Shown here one piece after another: positions 13,064 to 20,427 of a stretch of 64,000 nt of DNA (its first letter is position 1; every line of letters begins with the position of its first letter). The position numbers and the translations under genes are program-made. The notes under the pieces were generated by a model, which had not been told where the DNA came from, did no database searches, and saw only the letters and a list, made by a program, of their open reading frames with translations. This DNA comes from Escherichia phage L27: the sequence record LC473039.1; one strand, given 5' to 3'.

Positions 13064-14479
13064 ATGAGCGAGTTATTTAAACATGCGCACCTTCATGCAG
13101 GTCGAACTGAAAATGGTGCTGTAAACCATACTTCATCAATGTCTGCTCTGGTAGACTTCTACAAAGCCGCTGGCTCAAGCCGTAGCAATGTAGAAATCTT
13201 ACCAGACCTGTTCTACAAAGCTTTGCGTGAGGATGTTGATGTTGCAGTTCGTATTTTACTGCATATGCGAGATGTACGAGAAGGTATGGGTGAGCGTAAA
13301 GCTTTCCGAACTGTTTTACTTCAAGCGATTGAAGATAAGGTTTTAGAACCTACACAGGTTCTTCGCATTATGGATAAGATTGCAGAACTTGGTCGTTTTG
13401 ATGACTTCAAAATCTTCGTAGGTACTCGTTTCGAGACAGATGCCTTCAAACATTTAGAAGCAGCATTACTAGACCCTGCAACAGCAGGTTTAGCAGCTAA
13501 GTGGTTGCCACGAGTAAAACCACGCCACAAACAGTTTGTAAAACGTTTCTGTAAGTTTGCAAACTTAAGCGAGAAGGAGTATCGCACACTGCTATCTGCA
13601 CTGTCTGATACGGTTGAGCAAAAAATCTCTGCTAATGAGTTTGGTAAGATTGACTACAGCAAGATTCCTTCACTCGCTGCTGCACGTTACCAAAAGCTCT
13701 TTAACCGTAAAGATGGAGAGCGTTACAAAGCTTACATCGAATCATTATCAAAGGGTGAGGTTAAGATTAATGCTGGTGCTGTTTACCCATATGATGTGAT
13801 TAAATCTATTAAGTATGGTAATGCAGATGTTGCTAATGAGCAGTGGAAAGCACTTCCAAACTGGATGGCAGAAGGTGAAAACATCTTGTGTATGACTGAT
13901 GTTTCAAGCTCAATGTCTTGGGTGAATCTTGGTTCAATCACTGCCCTTGATATTGGTGTATCACTTGCCTTGTATGTAGCAGAACGCAATACAGGTTGCT
14001 TTAAAGATGAGTTAATGGTCTATTCAACAAACCCTCATTTCATTGAACTGAGTGGTGATTTACGAAACCGTCATCGTCAGGTAATGCGTCATGTTGAATA
14101 TGGTTCAACTAACTTACAAGCAGCTTTTGACCGTATTCTTGAGGTAGGTAAGAGAAACAACTTGACTCAGAAAGATATGCCAAGTAAGCTTATTATCTTC
14201 TCTGATATGGAGTTTAATCAGGTTGATGGTGCAAATGGTCGTACAAACTTTGAAGCAATTCAGAGTAAGTACAAAAAAGCTGGATACGAAATGCCACAAC
14301 TAGTATTCTGGTACTTAGCAAACCGTAATGGTACTTGCGAAGTATCTGTTAAGGATAATGGTGTAGCAATGGTATCAGGGTTCTCTCCAGCCACTTTAAA
14401 AGCTCTGCTTGGTGGTGAGAAGTTTGACCCAATCAGTGTAATGCTCAAAGCGGTAATGATTGACCGTTATATCTGGTAA
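13064..14479 (+). CDS. vWA-domain protein with MIDAS-like motif; candidate Ro60/TROVE-like (or DUF2828-like) RNA-binding protein (471 aa)
   Basis: DxSxS motif (DVSSSMS) about residue 280 followed by vWA-like pattern (IIFSDMEFN, VSGFSP); overall architecture resembles Ro60/Rsr as recalled, not searched. Confidence 0.5.
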   Translation: MSELFKHAHLHAGRTENGAVNHTSSMSALVDFYKAAGSSRSNVEILPDLFYKALREDVDVAVRILLHMRDVREGMGERKAFRTVLLQAIEDKVLEPTQVLRIMDKIAELGRFDDFKIFVGTRFETDAFKHLEAALLDPATAGLAAKWLPRVKPRHKQFVKRFCKFANLSEKEYRTLLSALSDTVEQKISANEFGKIDYSKIPSLAAARYQKLFNRKDGERYKAYIESLSKGEVKINAGAVYPYDVIKSIKYGNADVANEQWKALPNWMAEGENILCMTDVSSSMSWVNLGSITALDIGVSLALYVAERNTGCFKDELMVYSTNPHFIELSGDLRNRHRQVMRHVEYGSTNLQAAFDRILEVGKRNNLTQKDMPSKLIIFSDMEFNQVDGANGRTNFEAIQSKYKKAGYEMPQLVFWYLANRNGTCEVSVKDNGVAMVSGFSPATLKALLGGEKFDPISVMLKAVMIDRYIW

Positions 14480-14497: not shown

Positions 14498-14526
14498 TTG
14501 ACAATGTGTTTGATACCCTTTAATAT
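14498..14526 (+). promoter_or_regulatory. strong sigma70-like promoter (TTGACA-17-TAATAT) upstream of tRNA cluster
   Basis: consensus -35, 17-nt spacer, near-consensus -10. Confidence 0.7.
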
Positions 14527-14644
14527 GTTCTACATAGAAACGAAACGAGAGCTTTTCTAAGATACTGAAAAATATTTTAAAAAAGTTCTTGACAATCACT
14601 AAAAAATAATGTTAAAGTGGTTACATAGAGTTTGAAAAGTTTAT

Positions 14645-14721
14645 CTCTGTTTAGCTCAGCTTGGTAGAGCGTTCCGTTTGGGGCGGTAAGGCCGGAGGTT
14701 CAAGTCCTCCAACAGAGACCA
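14645..14721 (+). tRNA. tRNA-Pro (anticodon TGG)
   Basis: hand-folded cloverleaf; 7-bp acceptor ctctgtt/aacagag, T-loop ttcaagt, CCA encoded. Confidence 0.7.
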
Positions 14722-14728
14722 AATTAAT

Positions 14729-14806
14729 GTTCCAGTAGACAAAATGGTATAGTCACCACTCTTTCAAAGTGGATATTTGAGGGTTCAAATCCCTTCTGGA
14801 ACGCCA
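14729..14806 (+). tRNA. tRNA-Glu (anticodon TTC)
   Basis: acceptor gttccag/ctggaac, anticodon loop ctttcaa, CCA encoded. Confidence 0.7.
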
Positions 14807-14810
14807 GTTT

Positions 14811-14889
14811 TGACAGAAGACCAATTACAGCAAACTTAATCTTATTCATCTGAAGGTAAATCGGACAAAGAAGAGACTTGGTCTGGTCA
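14811..14889 (+). ncRNA. structured RNA-like element A (Y-RNA-like family)
   Basis: terminal helix tgac/gtca + AGAA/UG internal loop + GACCAA/TTGGTC helix; conserved 'tacagcaa' box. Confidence 0.5.
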
Positions 14890-14898
14890 TTAAGAATT

Positions 14899-14975
14899 GC
14901 GGGTATAGAGAAAGGGCGTCTCACATGTCTCATTAGCATGGTATCGGCAGGTTCGACTCCTGCACCCGCCTCCAA
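14899..14975 (+). tRNA. tRNA-Met-like (anticodon CAT), 1:72 unpaired
   Basis: anticodon loop ctcatta, T-arm gcagg/ttcgact/cctgc, CCA encoded; first acceptor pair mismatched. Confidence 0.6.
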
Positions 14976-14978
14976 ATT

Positions 14979-15049
14979 TACAGAAGACCGTTTACAGCAA
15001 AATTGAATGAAATTTTTAGCGGAAAAATTGAAAGATACGGTCTGGTAAT
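14979..15049 (+). ncRNA. structured RNA-like element B (Y-RNA-like family)
   Basis: terminal helix ttac/gtaa + AGAA/UG loop + GACCGT/ACGGTC helix. Confidence 0.5.
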
Positions 15050-15058
15050 ACTAAACAT

Positions 15059-15132
15059 GGTTAGGAAGCACATAAGGTATGTGCGGTCGCCTGTTAAGCG
15101 AATGGCACAGGGTTCGAATCCCTGACTAACCG
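15059..15132 (+). tRNA. tRNA-Asn (anticodon GTT)
   Basis: T-arm caggg/ttcgaat/ccctg, anticodon loop ctgttaa; CCA not encoded. Confidence 0.65.
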
Positions 15133-15144
15133 CAAAATTTAAAT

Positions 15145-15232
15145 GTGTCGTTATCCCGTAGATGGTAGCGGTGGGGACTGTAAATCCCTTGTCATTGAGA
15201 CTCGGTAGGTTCGACTCCTACACGGCACACCA
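15145..15232 (+). tRNA. tRNA-Tyr (anticodon GTA), long variable arm
   Basis: anticodon stem-loop gggga/ctgtaaa/tccct, T-arm gtagg/ttcgact/cctac, acceptor gtgtcgt/acggcac. Confidence 0.65.
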
Positions 15233-15254
15233 ACACTTAGCGAGATACTTAGTT

Positions 15255-15683
15255 ATGAGAGATGAAGTATACAAATCACAACTTGGTATGAGTTTGGGAA
15301 CTGCACAAAACAGACTAGTAAAAGATTTGCTATTCGATTTTATATGTAAGACAAATCAAAATAGATGTTTTCAGTGCGGAAAAGAAATGACTAGGGATGA
15401 TTTCTCTATCGAGCATAAGATTCCGTGGAGACATAGTGAGAATGCAAAAGAGCTTTTCTTTTCACTAGATAATATTTCTTATAGTCATCTTAAATGTAAC
15501 ATGAAAGCAGCAAGACCAGCACAGATAAGTGAAAGAAAACATAAAACAATTAAACACGGAACTGCGTATAGTTATTTTAAAGGCTGTAGATGCGATGAGT
15601 GTAGGTTGGCTAAGAATGCTGAGAGTAGAAGAAACTATAGTCCAGAAAGACGTAGGAAGAAGTATCTAAGAAATGGCACATGA
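15255..15683 (+). CDS. HNH homing endonuclease (142 aa)
   Basis: CFQCG...SIEHKIPW...N...H..CN HNH motif; basic C-terminus; embedded in tRNA cluster. Confidence 0.75.
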   Translation: MRDEVYKSQLGMSLGTAQNRLVKDLLFDFICKTNQNRCFQCGKEMTRDDFSIEHKIPWRHSENAKELFFSLDNISYSHLKCNMKAARPAQISERKHKTIKHGTAYSYFKGCRCDECRLAKNAESRRNYSPERRRKKYLRNGT

Positions 15684-15687
15684 ATTT

Positions 15688-15763
15688 GGGGTATTAGTTT
15701 AGACGGGTAAAATACGGGATTGTCTCTCCTGAGCCGCGAGTTCGATTCTCGCATACCTCGCCA
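15688..15763 (+). tRNA. tRNA-Asp (anticodon GTC)
   Basis: acceptor ggggtat/atacctc, anticodon loop ttgtctc, CCA encoded. Confidence 0.75.
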
Positions 15764-15821
15764 ATTTTGAGAGGGCTATTTAGCCCCTCCCTTAAAGGGT
15801 TCTTACGAGTATCTTTTAAAG

Positions 15822-15903
15822 GAGCAGAAGACCAAATACAGCAAGAACGTATGAAAATTTCAAGCCAATTTAATTTTGAAAAATTTAAAACTTGGTCTGG
15901 CTC
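15822..15903 (+). ncRNA. structured RNA-like element C (Y-RNA-like family)
   Basis: terminal helix gagc/gctc + AGAA/UG loop + GACCAA/TTGGTC helix. Confidence 0.5.
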
Positions 15904-15910
15904 AACAAAT

Positions 15911-16047
15911 TTACAGAAGACCGTTTACAGCAAAACTTAAACAATCTATTTCTCGGTAAAGAAAAGGCGAAGGTTCGATTCCTTCACTCGGCAGATGTCG
16001 AGTTGGTGTAATGGTAGCACTTAAGATGATAAACAACGGTCTGGTAA
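15911..16047 (+). ncRNA. structured RNA-like element D with circularly permuted tRNA-like module (candidate YrlA-type Y RNA)
   Basis: same terminal helices as A-C; interior has T-arm gaagg/ttcgatt/ccttc, then acceptor-3' actcggc, 4-nt linker, acceptor-5' gtcgagt (7-bp complement) and D-arm gtgt/aatggta/gcac. Confidence 0.5.
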
Positions 16048-16189
16048 TTATCTTTGTAGATAAGTTATTAAGCTTACCTGTGAGTATGCGACCACAAAGG
16101 GTGAAAGGGTAAATTCTAGATTTAAACCCAACAAGGCACATCGCTACAGACCTTAAGCAAGTCTGGGTAGCTTATCTACAAAGATAATT
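16046..16189 (+). ncRNA. structured element F bounded by a 19-bp perfect inverted repeat
   Basis: aattatctttgtagataag (16046-16064) is the exact reverse complement of 16171-16189; about 106-nt interior with internal hairpins. Confidence 0.45.
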
Positions 16190-16193
16190 TAAT

Positions 16194-16269
16194 GGAAGTG
16201 TAGCAGAATGGTGATGCGGTAGACTTTTAATCTGACAGGCGATGGGTTCGAATCCCTCCACTTCTACCA
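16194..16269 (+). tRNA. tRNA-Lys (anticodon TTT), atypical T-stem
   Basis: acceptor ggaagtg/cacttct, anticodon loop cttttaa; T-stem has A.C and U.U mismatches. Confidence 0.55.
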
Positions 16270-16273
16270 AAAT

Positions 16274-16350
16274 GGTTCAGTCGCAGATAAGGTAATGCAA
16301 GGGTCTCATAAGCCCTATGAATGTGGGTTCGATTCCCATCTGAACCTCCA
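16274..16350 (+). tRNA. tRNA-Met or Ile2 (anticodon CAT)
   Basis: acceptor ggttcag/ctgaacc perfect, anticodon loop ctcataa, CCA encoded. Confidence 0.7.
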
Positions 16351-16367
16351 ATTTATAGGTGATACTT

Positions 16368-16853
16368 ATGATTTGTGCCAACAAAGATTGCAGAAATGAA
16401 GCCGTTAAAGGTGGAAAATTTTGCTCACGCTCTTGTTCTGCAAAAGTGAACAACAAGAAACACCCAAAGAGAAGTCAGGAAGGCTCTTGCCATTCATGCG
16501 GAAAGGTAACGCCAAAAGCGAGAAAATACTGTGACGAATGTATTGCAGGTGGAGTCATGAAAAAACATAAGACCCATCATGAAAAAAGCAAAGCCAAATC
16601 ACTGCACGTTAAAAAGTCTCGTGACAGACTGAAGAAGGCTTTAGTTGATTACAAGGGTGGTTGTTGTTCAATTTGTGGTTACAATAGGTGCATAAAGGCT
16701 CTAGAGTTTCACCACTTAGACCCTAAGACAAAAGACTTCACAGTAAGTAAAAAACACTACTCACTGGCTACAATGCAGTCTGAAGTTGATAAGTGTGTCT
16801 TGCTTTGTGCAAATTGCCACAGAGAAGTACACGAAGGGGTAACAATGCTGTGA
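16368..16853 (+). CDS. HNH homing endonuclease (161 aa), Cys-rich N-terminus
   Basis: CSICGYN...LEFHHLDP...CANCHREVH HNH motif; stop codon lies inside the first bases of tRNA-Ile. Confidence 0.75.
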   Translation: MICANKDCRNEAVKGGKFCSRSCSAKVNNKKHPKRSQEGSCHSCGKVTPKARKYCDECIAGGVMKKHKTHHEKSKAKSLHVKKSRDRLKKALVDYKGGCCSICGYNRCIKALEFHHLDPKTKDFTVSKKHYSLATMQSEVDKCVLLCANCHREVHEGVTML

Positions 16854-16922
16854 AAGCACATATGGATGTGCATTCGGCTGATAACCGAAAGGCAGAAGGT
16901 TCAAATCCTTCTCACAGTACCA
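16847..16922 (+). tRNA. tRNA-Ile (anticodon GAT)
   Basis: clean cloverleaf: D-stem gcac/gtgc, anticodon stem ttcgg/ccgaa, T-stem gaagg/ccttc, CCA encoded. Confidence 0.8.
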
Positions 16923-16937
16923 ATTTCAATAAAGTTG

Positions 16938-16966
16938 TTGACATTGAGATGTGACTACTTTATAGT
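16938..16966 (+). promoter_or_regulatory. sigma70-like promoter (TTGACA-17-TATAGT) inside tRNA cluster
   Basis: consensus -35 and good -10 with 17-nt spacer. Confidence 0.65.
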
Positions 16967-17170
16967 AACCTTAGTTTTCGTTGCGTAGCGTCTATTTTGC
17001 AAATTTAAAATAAATGCAAACGACAATGTTTTTCTGGCAGTAGCTTGATAGGCTAAACACCAGTGAGGTCTTCCAATCCCTCATCAAAGAATTTGGCGTA
17101 CTCGCCCACGGTATGATTAATAAGGTGGGCATCTTTAAGGGCTTTCTAAGAGAGTCTTTAAAGATAATTA

Positions 17171-17252
17171 CGGGGCGTATCTCAGCGGTCTTCTAAACCG
17201 CCGTTAACCGAGTAAGTGGAGTATGCGGGTTCGAGTCCTGCCGCCTCGACCA
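17171..17252 (+). tRNA. aberrant tRNA-like gene (possible anticodon TCT), D-arm missing or unrecognisable
   Basis: good T-arm and 7-bp acceptor (cggggcg/cgcctcg) with CCA; stem-loop gcggt/cttctaa/accgc; only about 7 nt where the D-arm should be. Confidence 0.4.
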
Positions 17253-17395
17253 ATTTAGTTAGCAGATTACTTAGACGACCTAAGCGGGTCTTCCTGTAGG
17301 GAGGTGGTCTGTATCTCATGTTTTCCAGAACATGTAAATAATCTGAGAAGGGGCTTTACAGTGTTGAGATAATACGGTAAGCTTCGAATTATAGT

Positions 17396-17478
17396 ATGGG
17401 ACGATGTTAAGACTCTAAGGCATGAGCAACGGCTTCCAACACCGTTTCAAAGGGGTTCAACTCCTCCGTCCCATGCCA
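17396..17478 (+). tRNA. tRNA-Trp-like (anticodon CCA) with about 8-nt insertion before D-stem
   Basis: perfect 7-bp acceptor atgggac/gtcccat, anticodon loop ttccaac, T-loop ttcaact, CCA encoded; expanded D region. Confidence 0.45.
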
Positions 17479-17491
17479 AAGTCTTATTAGG

Positions 17492-17581
17492 GGTAGGTAG
17501 CGGCTAATGGTAGCCAAACAGTCTTGAAAACTGTTGCCACTGTAGAGATACGGTGAGGGTTCGACTCCTTTACTTACCGCC
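17492..17581 (+). tRNA. tRNA-Ser (anticodon TGA), long variable arm
   Basis: anticodon stem acagt/actgt perfect, loop cttgaaa, 20-nt variable arm. Confidence 0.75.
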
Positions 17582-17735
17582 TAATAAGATTTTACACCGT
17601 CCATGCTTGCTCGCATTTTCGGTTTATCCCTCGTGTATTGTCGTACACTGATAAAGCACCTAGTAGGTGTCACGGAGAAGAGATAATATCAAGCTCTCCA
17701 AAGGTTCTAGTCACCGGATTAAACAAGACTATGCA

Positions 17736-17758
17736 AAGACCAAATTAGGTCTTTTTAG
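17736..17758 (+). terminator. terminator-like hairpin with T-run inside tRNA cluster
   Basis: aagacc-aaatta-ggtctt followed by TTTTT. Confidence 0.45.
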
Positions 17759-17835
17759 AGGGCTTCTAAGGTTATTACAGCTTGTTGTGGAACCTTGTTG
17801 CTTAGGTTCTTAGAAGTTCTCTAAAAAGATTTAAT

Positions 17836-17913
17836 GGGAGATTGACGGTAATTGGTAAACCTATCTCGCTTAGAACGAGATGTTTGAGGGTTCGAATCCC
17901 TTGTCTCCTACCA
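17836..17913 (+). tRNA. tRNA with Leu-type anticodon TAG but short variable arm
   Basis: anticodon stem tctcg/cgaga, loop cttagaa, T-arm gaggg/ttcgaat/ccctt, CCA encoded. Confidence 0.55.
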
Positions 17914-17920
17914 AATTAAT

Positions 17921-17996
17921 GCAGGTGTAGCAAAATGGTTATGCGGCTGACTCTTAATCAGTAAGACGATGGGTTCAATTCCCTCCACCTGTACCA
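17921..17996 (+). tRNA. tRNA-Lys (anticodon CTT), atypical T-stem
   Basis: anticodon stem gctga/tcagt, loop ctcttaa; same unusual T-stem as the TTT Lys tRNA. Confidence 0.55.
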
Positions 17997-18002
17997 GACA
18001 TT

Positions 18003-18078
18003 GGGGATGTAGTTTACATGGTTAAAACATAAGTTTTGCAAACTTAAGTACAGGGTTCAATTCCCTGCTTCTCCACCA
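18003..18078 (+). tRNA. tRNA-Ala (anticodon TGC)
   Basis: G3.U70 wobble pair present; D-stem gttt/aaac, anticodon stem taagt/actta perfect. Confidence 0.8.
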
Positions 18079-18084
18079 ATTAGT

Positions 18085-18159
18085 GCATCCATAGTTTAAA
18101 CGGGAAAATTGCAGTCTTCCAAACTGAGGTTGAGGGTTCGATTCCCTCTGGATGCTCCA
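18085..18159 (+). tRNA. tRNA-Gly (anticodon TCC)
   Basis: perfect acceptor gcatcca/tggatgc, T-arm gaggg/ttcgatt/ccctc. Confidence 0.75.
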
Positions 18160-18165
18160 AATAAA

Positions 18166-18242
18166 GCTGCTTTCGTATAATTGGCTATTACACATCCCTT
18201 GTAAGGATGGAAATGCAGGTTCGAGTCCTGTGAGCAGCACCA
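18166..18242 (+). tRNA. tRNA-Thr (anticodon TGT)
   Basis: anticodon stem catcc/ggatg perfect, loop cttgtaa, CCA encoded. Confidence 0.75.
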
Positions 18243-18245
18243 ATT

Positions 18246-18333
18246 CAGAGGTCAAGTGAAAGACCGCTGGTGTCAACTGAAGACCGTAACAAATTCCACG
18301 GAGTTGAGTTAGCGGCACAACTTCAGACCTCTT
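18246..18333 (+). ncRNA. structured RNA-like element E (truncated family member with nested helices)
   Basis: outer helix agaggtc/gacctct; inner mini-element 18275-18307 has caac/gttg + ccgt/acgg helices and 'gaagaccgt' box. Confidence 0.4.
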
Positions 18334-18337
18334 TCAC

Positions 18338-18412
18338 ACTCGCTTAGTTTATATGGTAAAACATCACCCTTACAAGATGAAGAAAAAGGTTCAAGTCCTT
18401 TAGTGAGTACCA
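18338..18412 (+). tRNA. tRNA-Val (anticodon TAC)
   Basis: D-stem gttt/aaac, anticodon loop cttacaa, T-arm aaagg/ttcaagt/ccttt. Confidence 0.7.
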
Positions 18413-18413
18413 T

Positions 18414-18491
18414 GTTCCAGTATCCCAATTGGCAGAGGATGCAAGCTCAAACCTTGTATTAGTGACGGTTCGAATCCGTCTTGGAACACCA
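18414..18491 (+). tRNA. tRNA with Leu-type anticodon CAA but short variable arm
   Basis: anticodon stem gcaag/cttgt, loop ctcaaac, T-arm gacgg/ttcgaat/ccgtc perfect. Confidence 0.55.
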
Positions 18492-18510
18492 ATTTTAAGA
18501 GGCTATTTAG

Positions 18511-19068
18511 ATGAGATATTTGAAGTATGCTTCATGGATTTTCCTAGCTTTACTAGAGCCATTTGCAGCAACCCTAGCAGTCATCTTAGCACCTTTCGTA
18601 GTCCCATTCTACAGTGAGAAGAAAGGGCATCTACCTTTTGGATTCAGATGGATGGAGACCTATGACAACCCGATTGATGGTGATGAAGGCCACGTTAAAA
18701 GATGGGCTAAGATTAGAAAGATTGGTAAGCTGGGTGTCTACATGCAGAGAGTTGGGTGGCTCTGGAGAAACAAAGCTTATAACTTCTCTTACCATGTATT
18801 AGGAAGAGATGTAAAAGATGTTACTAAGTGGAAAGGTAATATCAACGTAAGTTCTAACCCTGAAGATAATCAAACAGGTTATCTCCTAATGTGGAACAGA
18901 AATGCTTGGGGTTTATTTGCTTTTATCCCATCAATTAAAGTCTTTGGTAAACAGTTTTACTGGAGAATTTATATTGGATGGAAACTAAAAAGTGTTGTCC
19001 CAGAAGAAAGAGCATTCTCAAGGGAAAGAGTTATGTTGGCATTCTTTATTCATCCACTGAGAAAGTAA
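18511..19068 (+). CDS. hypothetical membrane protein (185 aa) inside tRNA cluster
   Basis: N-terminal hydrophobic segment (WIFLALLEPFAATLAVILAPFVVPF); ORF between tRNA genes. Confidence 0.55.
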   Translation: MRYLKYASWIFLALLEPFAATLAVILAPFVVPFYSEKKGHLPFGFRWMETYDNPIDGDEGHVKRWAKIRKIGKLGVYMQRVGWLWRNKAYNFSYHVLGRDVKDVTKWKGNINVSSNPEDNQTGYLLMWNRNAWGLFAFIPSIKVFGKQFYWRIYIGWKLKSVVPEERAFSRERVMLAFFIHPLRK

Positions 19069-19076
19069 AGATTTAA

Positions 19077-19152
19077 AGGGGATTAGTTTACAAGGTTAAA
19101 ACCTCGGTCTTTGAAATCGAAGAAGTTGGTTCAATTCCAACATCCCCCGCCA
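19077..19152 (+). tRNA. tRNA-Gln (anticodon TTG), A1.C72 mismatch
   Basis: anticodon loop ctttgaa, T-arm gttgg/ttcaatt/ccaac perfect. Confidence 0.65.
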
Positions 19153-19154
19153 AT

Positions 19155-19233
19155 GCTCCATTACTCCAATTGGCAGAGAGGCCAGACTTAAAATCTGTGT
19201 TATGTATCGGTTCGAATCCGATATGGAGTACCA
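19155..19233 (+). tRNA. tRNA with Leu-type anticodon TAA but short variable arm
   Basis: anticodon loop cttaaaa, T-arm atcgg/ttcgaat/ccgat perfect. Confidence 0.55.
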
Positions 19234-19238
19234 AATTT

Positions 19239-19314
19239 AGCGGTATAGCATAACTGGCAATGCAGCAGTCTCTGAAGCTGTCCTATTAAGGTTCAAATCC
19301 TTATGCCGCTGCCA
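19239..19314 (+). tRNA. tRNA-Gln (anticodon CTG)
   Basis: anticodon stem gcagt/gctgt (two G.U), loop ctctgaa, T-arm taagg/ttcaaat/cctta. Confidence 0.7.
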
Positions 19315-19345
19315 CTTCTAAGGGTTCTTACGAGAGTCCTTAAAT

Positions 19346-19421
19346 GTGGCCTTATCATAAATGGTAATGACCCATGCTGTGAACATGGTCTATACGGGTT
19401 CAAATCCCGTAGGTCACCCCA
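19346..19421 (+). tRNA. tRNA-His (anticodon GTG)
   Basis: D-stem tcat/atga, anticodon stem ccatg/catgg perfect, T-arm acggg/ttcaaat/cccgt perfect. Confidence 0.8.
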
Positions 19422-19426
19422 ATTTA

Positions 19427-19502
19427 TAGTCCAAGTAGCTTATATGGTAAAGCGCGTGTCTGAAAAACATGAGAAGAGGGTTCAAATCCCACTGGACTAC
19501 CA
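19427..19502 (+). tRNA. tRNA-Phe (anticodon GAA), boundaries approximate
   Basis: D-stem gctt/aagc, anticodon loop ctgaaaa; acceptor tagtcca/tggacta. Confidence 0.6.
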
Positions 19503-19518
19503 ATTTCAAAGGTGCTTA

Positions 19519-20253
19519 ATGAAAGAGATGACAGAACAAGGTAAGGAGATTTTTAATCTCTTAAAAACCGGTAAAGGGTTTTCTAACCCACTTATTACTG
19601 GTGCAGCAGTTCTCGGTGGAACCGTAGCTGCCTCTACATCACTTGTAAACTCTATTAGTTCTGTAACAGACCCTACAATGAAGGATAAACTTGTTGCTGC
19701 TGGACTTACAACAGTCCTTCTAAACAGCTTTACAACAAGCCTTACAAGCACTACAGCAACTACTAAGACCCTAACAGACTACGGTCAAAAGTCTATTGAT
19801 GAGTTTTCATCACGTATGCAGGTAGCAAAGGGATACTCCAATGTTATGGGTGCAGCAGGAGAACAAGTTGGTTGTACACCATTCAGTGGTATTATGGGTG
19901 TTGCTACAGAGTATGGTCAAAAAGCTATTGACACGATTAACAGTACACTGGATAGTGTTAATGATGTGTTAAGTGACTTACAAGATGCTATTGATAAGGG
20001 TCTTGATACTGTTTCTGATTTAGCTAACCAAGCTGTAAGTAAAATTAATGAAGGTATTTCAAAGATTACAGCTTATGCAGATGAAGTTGTGCAGATGATT
20101 GAAGAAGAAGCTGCACTTATTGCAGAGTACCTTAAAACGAATATCAATGGGTTCTTAGCAGGTATCTTACCAGACTGGTTTGATGATGCTTGCAAAACTG
20201 GTGTAATTGACACTATTGCAACACCAGAAATGAAGAACGCATTACAGAAATAA
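19519..20253 (+). CDS. hypothetical Ser/Thr-rich protein (about 245 aa) inside tRNA cluster
   Basis: ORF from ATG at 19519; the upstream part of the track ORF overlaps tRNA genes and is discounted. Confidence 0.5.
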   Translation: MKEMTEQGKEIFNLLKTGKGFSNPLITGAAVLGGTVAASTSLVNSISSVTDPTMKDKLVAAGLTTVLLNSFTTSLTSTTATTKTLTDYGQKSIDEFSSRMQVAKGYSNVMGAAGEQVGCTPFSGIMGVATEYGQKAIDTINSTLDSVNDVLSDLQDAIDKGLDTVSDLANQAVSKINEGISKITAYADEVVQMIEEEAALIAEYLKTNINGFLAGILPDWFDDACKTGVIDTIATPEMKNALQK

Positions 20254-20254
20254 T

Positions 20255-20347
20255 GGAAGATTAACCCTAAAAGGTAAGGGAGCAGTTTGCTAAACTGCCA
20301 GTAGCTGAGAAATCGGTGTACCAGTTCAAGTCTGGTATCTTCCTCCA
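20255..20347 (+). tRNA. tRNA-Ser (anticodon GCT), long variable arm
   Basis: perfect acceptor ggaagat/atcttcc, anticodon stem gcagt/actgc, 21-nt variable arm. Confidence 0.8.
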
Positions 20348-20351
20348 ATTT

Positions 20352-20427
20352 GAATCCGTGACAGAAATGGCTATGTGCCTGTCTGCAAAACAGGTTTATA
20401 AGGGTTCGAGTCCCTTCGGATTCTCCA
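20352..20427 (+). tRNA. tRNA-Cys (anticodon GCA)
   Basis: perfect acceptor gaatccg/cggattc, anticodon stem cctgt/acagg. Confidence 0.8.

Follow-up and report, generated by a model that had tools for sequence, protein, structure and literature searches.

A stretch of 64,000 nucleotides (nt) from Escherichia phage L27 (sequence record LC473039.1; hereafter the window, whose positions serve as coordinates) carries a 19-bp perfect inverted repeat within a tRNA gene cluster. Comparison with related phages shows this repeat to be the predicted closing helix, P1, of a conserved structured RNA encoded on the + strand and referred to here as element E. Element E is probably a separate small RNA, co-transcribed with its neighbours, with P1 closing its two ends and both defining and protecting them. 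The assignment as a structured RNA is made because P1 and a 3' hairpin covary, because G-U pairs form in P1 on the + strand, and because no conserved open reading frame (ORF) covers the element. E constitutes an RNA family absent from Rfam and no description of it was found in the literature.

The two arms of the repeat, 16046-16064 and 16171-16189, display perfect complementarity over 19 bp and are separated by 106 nt. These dimensions, first given in a sequence-only reading of this DNA, are borne out by a repeat search and a motif search of the window. The repeat search returns arms of 22 nt each (16046-16067 and 16168-16189) that are 95% complementary and, counting G-U pairs, P1 reaches 24 bp (16046-16069 with 16166-16189), with 21 Watson-Crick pairs, 3 G-U pairs and no mismatch. 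The repeat is not a chance feature, because it is the longest of all perfect inverted repeats with a gap of at most 200 nt in the 64-kb window and because the maxima obtained in 60 first-order Markov simulations of the window are only 10-15 bp, against the 19 bp observed. The arm motif has no occurrence in the window beyond its two arms. The 156-nt stretch holding the repeat folds at -48.3 kcal/mol, with a z-score of -5.4 relative to dinucleotide shuffles. The parts of E and its 3' neighbour are the following.

16046-16189, + strand: element E, the whole structured RNA of ~144 nt, delineated by the repeat, folding, comparison and a covariance model.
16046-16069, + strand: 5' strand of P1, the first 19 nt of which are the perfect repeat arm of the 24-pair helix.
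16072-16076, + strand: GCUUA, next to the P1 5' strand on its 3' side, which may pair as a pseudoknot with UAAGC (16155-16159) in the P4 loop.
16080-16095, + strand: hairpin P2, GUG-AGUAUGCGAC-CAC, read from the sequences and not formally counted.
16107-16129, + strand: hairpin P3, GGGU-AAAUU-CUA-GAUUU-AA-ACCC, with CUAG in the loop, obtained from folding and alignment.
16147-16165, + strand: hairpin P4, CAGAC-CUUAAGCAA-GUCUG, the most conserved internal feature, with compensatory changes.
16166-16189, + strand: 3' strand of P1, beginning right after P4 and ending 4 nt before tRNA-Lys.
16190-16269, + strand: spacer UAAU (4 nt) followed by tRNA-Lys(UUU) at 16194-16269.

The region is 96-99% identical to that of Salmonella and Escherichia phages of the Felixounavirus genus, which includes Felix O1, and 249 phage records contain a match to the 200 nt around the repeat. 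When 35 loci from GenBank and IMG/VR are compared, 21 distinct versions of E emerge, falling into two sequence types. Type 1 is that of the window, whereas type 2 is carried by Mooglevirus, Suspvirus and a few Felixounavirus genomes such as Seyj1-1. Most of the interior differs between both types, whereas the length, the position, the long terminal stem and P4 are retained. The P1 arms themselves are exchanged, GUAGAUAAG/CUUAUCUAC in type 1 being replaced by GCAGUGACUUA/UAGGUUACUGC in type 2. In an alignment combining types 1 and 2 with two more distant phages, 97.7% of the cells of the 24 P1 pairs are paired and 9 pairs are changed on both sides, against 32-45% of cells paired in a control in which the partners are slid by 1-3 columns. 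P4 is 100% paired in the same alignment. Single substitutions in P1 of two close relatives (L009 and L013) lead to G-U pairs on the + strand; on the opposite strand, the same substitutions would give A-C mismatches, so that the functional RNA is that of the + strand.

More distant relatives were found as contigs (L115 to L121) whose Ro60-like protein, encoded upstream of the tRNA cluster and described below, is 53-63% identical to that of the window. All of them carry an element of 142-166 nt with a terminal stem of 21-26 bp, the sequence of which is unrelated to that of the window, and a weaker element with a stem of ~16 bp is present in L122, whose Ro-like protein is 51% identical. In L117, L118 and L121, as in the window, the 3' strand of P1 follows P4 directly without any spacer. 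Over 13 representatives, all five predicted pairs of P4 hold through changes on both sides. The P4 loop of 7-9 nt ends with GCAA in six of the eight lineages, with GUAA in L120 and differently in L121, as listed below.

Window (type 1): CAGAC-CUUAAGCAA-GUCUG.
Type 2: CAGACC-CUUUAGCAA-GGUCUG.
L115/L119: CAGUC-CUUAAGCAA-GACUG.
L116: CUGUUC-CUUAAGCAA-GAACGG.
L117: AAAGUC-CCUUAGCAA-GACUUU.
L118: AGAGAC-CCUAUGCAA-GUCUCU.
L120: CAGACC-CUUUAGUAA-GGUCUG.
L121: AGAGUU-CUUGCAC-AACUCU.

A covariance model, R1, was built from types 1 and 2 and L115/L119 only, leaving out L120 and L116. It recovers L120 at E = 1.6e-5 and L116 at E = 0.07, and finds a single copy of E in the window with 146 bits. By contrast with these relatives, E is not found by R1 in 75 loci around distant genes of the DUF2828 family, to which the Ro60-like gene belongs, and a generic search for long stems abutting tRNAs returns such stems almost exclusively in the Ounavirinae-like group. 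As far as can be detected, E is confined to Ounavirinae-like phages, where its locus also holds a Ro60-like gene, Y-RNA-like elements and tRNA genes.

An inverted repeat of this kind may also be viewed as a DNA-level or mobile feature, namely a miniature inverted-repeat element, a cruciform, an origin or a recombination site. Perfect 19-bp terminal repeats around a short segment are what such an element would look like, and two sequence types do occupy the same site in otherwise near-identical genomes. Nevertheless, there is one copy per genome at a fixed site, no direct repeat or target-site duplication flanks the arms, and no empty site occurs among the loci read; these features lead to rejection of the miniature inverted-repeat mobile element. 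Moreover, the G-U pairing works on the + strand RNA only, P4 covaries, and the two types are explained by mosaic exchange with sequence of the Mooglevirus/Suspvirus type, which makes an explanation at the DNA level extremely improbable. Two other identities were discarded. An intrinsic terminator is absent from the terminator scan at this place, the arms are 106 nt apart and UAAUGG follows them instead of a U tract. A protein-coding gene is contradicted by the lack of any ORF conserved across relatives: ORFs of 20-50 amino acids over E differ in frame, strand and sequence in every lineage, although some database records annotate a 'hypothetical protein' there.

Inside P1, the structure is retained unevenly. 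Both interior hairpins pointed out by the sequence-only reading exist: cagac...gtctg corresponds to P4, conserved with compensatory changes, and gggt...accc to P3, which is retained in part of the family only. In the alignment of types 1 and 2 with the two more distant phages, the inner helix of P3 is 88.5% paired and the outer helix 63.5%, the latter finding no support in type 2. The CUAG of the P3 loop is present in type 1, type 2 and L115/L119 and absent from L117, L118 and L121. In P2, the loop (G)AGU(AU)GC(G/C)G is retained while the stem varies, from GUG/CAC in type 1 to GGGG/CCCC in L115/L119 and CAU/AUG in type 2. The P4 loop and the GCUUA next to P1 form a candidate pseudoknot. The complementarity is GCUUA:UAAGC in type 1, GCUAA:UUAGC in type 2 and L117, UUGCUUA:UAAGCAA in L115/L119, UUGCUU:AAGCAA in L116 and, as read by eye, UUACUA:UAGUAA in L120; it is not seen in L118 or L121. 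Six lineages in total show it with matching changes, each instance being weak alone (shuffle frequency of 0-0.12 in five of them).

This compact multi-hairpin fold with its candidate pseudoknot could evoke an RNA acting in the processing or regulation of the tRNA next to it, as a self-cleaving ribozyme or a ligand sensor, the more so as small ribozymes are known beside phage tRNAs. The interior, where a catalytic core or a binding pocket would sit, is nevertheless the least conserved part of E. Rfam 15 gives no match to 16046-16189 at E <= 10 in a scan of 441 nt and none to E at E <= 1 in a scan of 8 kb. Such an identity is considered very unlikely.

The proposition that the repeat encloses a separate small RNA is well supported by the conserved length, position and architecture of E, by the compensatory changes in P1 and P4, by the + strand G-U pairs and by the absence of a conserved ORF, all of which point to an RNA product. 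How it would be produced can be proposed from its surroundings. The window belongs to a Felix O1-like phage (Ounavirinae) and its cluster comprises 24 tRNA genes, all on the same strand, from 14645 to 20427. Two promoter-like sites of the sigma-70 type precede them (14498-14526 and 14589-14618) and no + strand terminator-like site is found from there until 19576, so that E would lie in a polycistronic precursor of tRNAs and Y-RNA-like elements. It would be co-transcribed, from the promoter-like sites near 14.5-14.6 kb, with the tRNAs and with four spacer elements, A to D, detailed further below. E indeed lies between element D and tRNA-Lys, as had been remarked: D is a real element that ends at 16047 and overlaps the stem by 2 nt, and tRNA-Lys(UUU) starts 4 nt past the stem. 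A cut by RNase P at the 5' end of tRNA-Lys (16193/16194) would set the 3' end of E, leaving a 4-nt tail. A cut would also be needed on the 5' side of E, where the closing helix of D runs into P1. There, either RNase III may free the 5' end of E by cutting P1 on both strands, or this end may arise by trimming up to the helix. In the first case, D, E and tRNA-Lys would come apart at a single step, through cleavage of both strands in the manner of rRNA stalks. P1 would then shield both ends of E from exonucleases.

RNase III sites are characterized by about two helical turns of mostly regular duplex, and P1 offers 19 Watson-Crick pairs, or 24 pairs with G-U. Cleavage of this predicted substrate, already suggested from the sequence, is plausible; the suggestion is reasonable because the stem is long enough and because two other long stems exist in the cluster, at tRNA-Leu and tRNA-Ser. 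P1 resembles the RNase III stalks of the E. coli rRNA operons and the sites of the T7 early region in that a duplex of at least 20 bp encloses an RNA within a polycistronic transcript. It differs from them in enclosing an RNA of 100 nt and in having distant versions with a 1x1 mismatch. The two other stems are the following.

17744-17835, + strand: element F, a 92-nt hairpin with a stem of 27-28 bp, ending exactly at tRNA-Leu(UAG), which starts at 17836.
17478-17491 / 17580-17593: 14-bp inverted repeat around the whole tRNA-Ser(UGA), lengthening its acceptor stem to ~21 bp.

Element F, with its apical motif UUGUUGCU, is retained by type-2 genomes and L115/L119, and its stem has a base similar to that of E, UCUUUGUAGAU being common to F and to P1 of L115. 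In some genomes, an HNH gene takes the place of F. A loop-loop pairing between the P4 loop of E and the apical UUGCUUAGG of F was considered and rejected: it amounts to 9 bp in type 1, to only 5 bp (AGCAA:UUGCU) in type 2 and L115, and does not covary. The flanking stem of tRNA-Ser is kept in L115, and in L117 with compensatory changes; it resembles an rRNA-style processing stem placed around a tRNA.

The proximity of E to tRNA-Lys(UUU) raises another explanation, in which E is mainly a cis-acting 5' leader that controls or times the maturation of this tRNA, for example by keeping its precursor until RNase III or RNase P cut it or by shielding this precursor, and not a free-standing RNA. In every lineage examined, E-like elements end 0-10 nt before tRNA-Lys(UUU), although the tRNAs on either side vary (Asp-D-E-Lys-Met in the window, Ala-E-Lys-Leu in L116 to L118). 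Element F stays likewise attached to tRNA-Leu(UAG), tRNA-Ser sits inside its own 14-bp flanking stem, and anticodon nucleases such as PrrC often attack tRNA-Lys(UUU). However, a leader role requires no ~100 nt of conserved internal structure such as P2-P4 and the candidate pseudoknot, and no such leader is found at the other tRNAs of the cluster, tRNA-Leu(UAG) with F excepted. The tight linkage is also expected anyway, as elements 0-4 nt apart are rarely split by recombination. A role limited to that of a leader is thereby judged unlikely. A T-box-like function, in which the P4 loop would present a Lys codon (AAG) as a specifier for tRNA-Lys, was rejected as AAG is lost in type 2, L117 and L118.

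Besides the tRNAs, the context most relevant to E, and one that the sequence-only reading had not covered, is a Ro60-like protein gene upstream of the cluster together with element D, a Y-RNA-like tRNA mimic. The gene and the four spacer repeats are as follows.

13064-14479, + strand: gene of a Ro60-like protein of 471 amino acids, with Pfam DUF2828 and DUF7788 and an invariant DxSxS MIDAS motif.
14811-14889, + strand: element A.
14978-15048, + strand: element B.
15822-15903, + strand: element C.
15911-16047, + strand: element D.

The Ro60-like ORF ends 165 nt upstream of the first tRNA, and E is found on the same strand 1.57 kb farther downstream; nothing but tRNAs, Y-like elements and one HNH ORF separates the two. 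PHROGs labels the product as 'RNA-binding protein'. Its AlphaFold model (pLDDT 88) was submitted to Foldseek, for which the top 12 PDB matches are all Ro60/Rsr/TROVE proteins (best E = 7e-8, TM 0.67) and include Ro60 of Thermus phage phiLo; the product is predicted from this model to have a Ro60 ring plus a vWA fold. It is 33% identical to a mycobacteriophage 'Ro-like RNA binding protein' and its homologues number more than 2400, the majority in phages that infect many different hosts, with 692 phage records matching by tblastn. A preprint provides the one relevant statement found in the literature: the homologue gp130 of Bas63 acts against the ppl defence system, with 'some of the tRNA genes' as no more than guessed RNA partners (bioRxiv 10.1101/2024.10.10.617714).

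Elements A to D share the consensus 5' NNNC-AGA-AGACC(N2-3)-UU-ACAGCAA ... (N2-3)GGUCU-G-GNNN 3', as in AGACCGU-UUACAGCAA...ACGGUCU-GGUAAU, with ACAGCAA following the 5' strand of the helix and a GGUAAU-like sequence its 3' strand. The outer 4 bp covary between copies (UGAC/GUCA, UUAC/GUAA, GAGC/GCUC), with AGACC/GGUCU fixed. In D, the closing helix is UUAC-AGA-AGACCGUU / AACGGUCU-G-GUAA, and the parts of a tRNA follow in a permuted order: a T arm at 15969-15985 (GAAGG-UUCGAUU-CCUUC), a closed acceptor-like hairpin at 15986-16003 and a D arm at 16006-16020. Across relatives, the fold of D is 99.2% paired with 3 pairs of the acceptor hairpin changed on both sides, and the closed acceptor helix is swapped wholesale (ACUCGGC/GUCGAGU, ACACGU/GCGUGU, ACCCUUC/GAAGGGU). 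This is the architecture of YrlA, a bacterial Y RNA that mimics tRNA (PMC4201824). The Ro-like protein of mycobacteriophage Snenia also combines DUF2828 and DUF7788, and its gene is followed (L125:2960-3240) by three elements of the form [helix]-N-ACAGCAA...[helix']-AGU(A/U)A, the middle one having a T arm, a closed acceptor and a D arm like D. The same ACAGCAA module occurs after DUF2828 genes in L058, L063 and L079. Because the module adjoins the Ro-like gene of Snenia and other DUF2828 genes, A to D are regarded as Y-like RNAs of an 'ACAGCAA class' and look like the Y RNAs of this phage group.

Against this background, E may be a Y-RNA-like subunit of a phage Ro60-like ribonucleoprotein, in which P4, as a minimal [helix]-UAAGCAA-[helix']-GGUA module, or P1 would be bound by the Ro-like protein while the rest would recruit an exoribonuclease or another host factor. 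This reading narrows the preferred explanation of E as a separate co-transcribed small RNA, the mature form of which would, speculatively, join the Ro60-like protein as a Y-RNA-like partner, and it is put forward tentatively as a possibility. It is favoured by the Ro60-fold protein encoded upstream on the same strand, by the four ACAGCAA Y-like RNAs standing between this gene and E and the occurrence of their module beside other Ro-like genes, and by the activity of Bas63 gp130 against ppl, for which RNA partners have been guessed. P4 with its 3' flank, CAGAC-CUUAAGCAA-GUCUG-GGUA, further resembles the A-D module without its insert, and Y RNAs generally possess a long stem formed by their two ends (PMC4201824). 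A still more elaborate proposal makes both E and A-D subunits of the Ro60-like ribonucleoprotein, E being a new type of Ro partner with a minimal Ro-binding P4 inside a pseudoknotted domain and a stem processed by RNase III, coupled to the supply of tRNA-Lys(UUU); taken as a whole it appears rather doubtful.

The comparison with known Y RNAs, such as YrlA/YrlB and Yrl1/Yrl2 of Thermus phage phiLo, is informative on both sides. Like E, these have a gene of the Ro60 fold nearby on the same strand, measure 80-170 nt, and consist of a long stem made from both ends with internal loops and hairpins; several different RNAs per locus are processed from one precursor, as would be the case here (PMC4201824, PMC12135203). 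In contrast to them, E has no GNCGAAN0-1G or CGAA near the 5' end in a bulged helix, and P1 is a perfect duplex without a bulge (PMC4201824, PMC12135203). Unlike YrlA, E has neither a tRNA-like domain nor a GGUUCGA T loop, whereas its neighbour D has the T arm, the D arm and the closed acceptor. E is also distinguished from Y RNAs by its candidate pseudoknot and by adjoining a tRNA gene, whereas A-D do fit the Y RNA family as an ACAGCAA variant. Taken feature by feature, E displays the same-strand gene of the Ro60 fold and the long end-to-end stem of Y RNAs, and lacks their CGAA motif and tRNA-like domain.

Several observations weigh against the explanation of E as a free small RNA with a protective stem or, more specifically, as a partner of the Ro60-like protein. 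Its interior is poorly conserved between near and far lineages, the inner hairpins of L117, L118 and L121 being different (for example with a UAACGUU loop), and because of this position, P1 and P4 carry the case for homology of the far elements. P1 of these lineages usually contains a 1x1 mismatch ~13 bp above the base of the stem, and RNase III cleavage could be altered or blocked by it. Transcription, processing and stability of E are all three inferred, literature searches on Felix O1-like phages having yielded no data on expression, RNA ends or cleavage. As for Ro binding, E (16046-16189) has no CGAA and no exact ACAGCAA, with only UAAGCAA in the P4 loop, and the likeness of P4 to the A-D module fades with distance in the far lineages. 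The stem of P4 covaries freely, whereas the AGACC/GGUCU of A-D is fixed, which weakens the idea that P4 is strictly the same module as the closing helix of A-D. Many phages with DUF2828 proteins, including those of the 75 distant loci, have no E detectable by R1. Finally, the P4 loop may be engaged in the internal pseudoknot instead of forming a Ro-binding module.

Small RNAs within a phage tRNA cluster are also represented by the species 1 and 2 RNAs of T4, rnaC (139 nt) and rnaD (119 nt), which are stable RNAs encoded next to a homing-endonuclease gene; the fold of rnaC has a z-score of -4.6. In contrast to E, rnaC ends in a T arm plus an acceptor-like stem, and no similarity is seen by covariance model. 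Homology to rnaC/rnaD was rejected as the covariance model of E gives only noise there. T4 was not seen among the tblastn matches listed for the Ro-like protein. T4 species 1 RNA was reportedly cleaved by RNase III in vitro in studies of the 1970s.

Other features of the cluster deserve mention. Two ORFs of HNH-type homing endonucleases (15255-15683 and 16359-16853, + strand) are found between tRNA genes, and otherwise identical clusters differ in length because these ORFs are present or absent among relatives. Just after tRNA-Asp (15764-15823, + strand), a hairpin GAG-A-GGGCU-AUUU-AGCCC-CUC is followed by a helix CUCCCUUAAAG / CUUUUAAAGGAG, and both are found in all relatives read, L115 included. 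A near-consensus promoter, TTGACA-17-TATAGT, is located at 16938-16966 and a conserved region of ~200 nt follows it, within 16938-17170. This region contains a tag-like ORF (17016-17048; GCA AAC GAC AAU GUU UUU CUG GCA GUA GCU UGA) encoding ANDNVFLAVA-stop, which is very similar to ANDENYALAA, the tag of the E. coli transfer-messenger RNA (tmRNA). Mooglevirus and Suspvirus retain it, their changes being synonymous or conservative (GAC>GAU, UGA>UAA, V>A), and a downstream hairpin covaries. The tmRNA model of Rfam gives only 16 bits (E = 0.003) and ARAGORN identifies no tmRNA; 16938-17170 may be a phage tmRNA-like coding piece. The adjoining 17170-17249 (+ strand) is a tRNA-like gene according to Rfam (31.7 bits) and not to ARAGORN, with anticodon UCU and a long variable region. 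Its acceptor stem CGGGGCG/CGCCUCG, with G3-U70, A73 and CCA, carries alanine identity elements, and an ordinary tRNA-Arg(UCU) of different sequence stands at this place in relatives. A third long-stem element (22-30 bp stem, 185-196 nt) lies between the Ro-like gene and tRNA-Pro in L116:8844-9023, L117:8647-8838 and L118:8800-8995, and also upstream of tRNA-Pro in L120 and L121. The window has nothing but the two promoter-like sites in the corresponding interval.

Felix O1-like phages are classics of phage typing and phage therapy. For them, several database records that call a 'hypothetical protein' over E can be corrected. Should E prove to be only a processing cassette, it would still illustrate, in compact form, how RNase III can excise an RNA from a tRNA operon in the manner of rRNA. 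E is of a familiar kind, yet it supplies testable RNA candidates for a phage counter-defence protein: with the four Y-like RNAs A-D, it provides the Ro60-like protein with concrete candidates whose coordinates are given.

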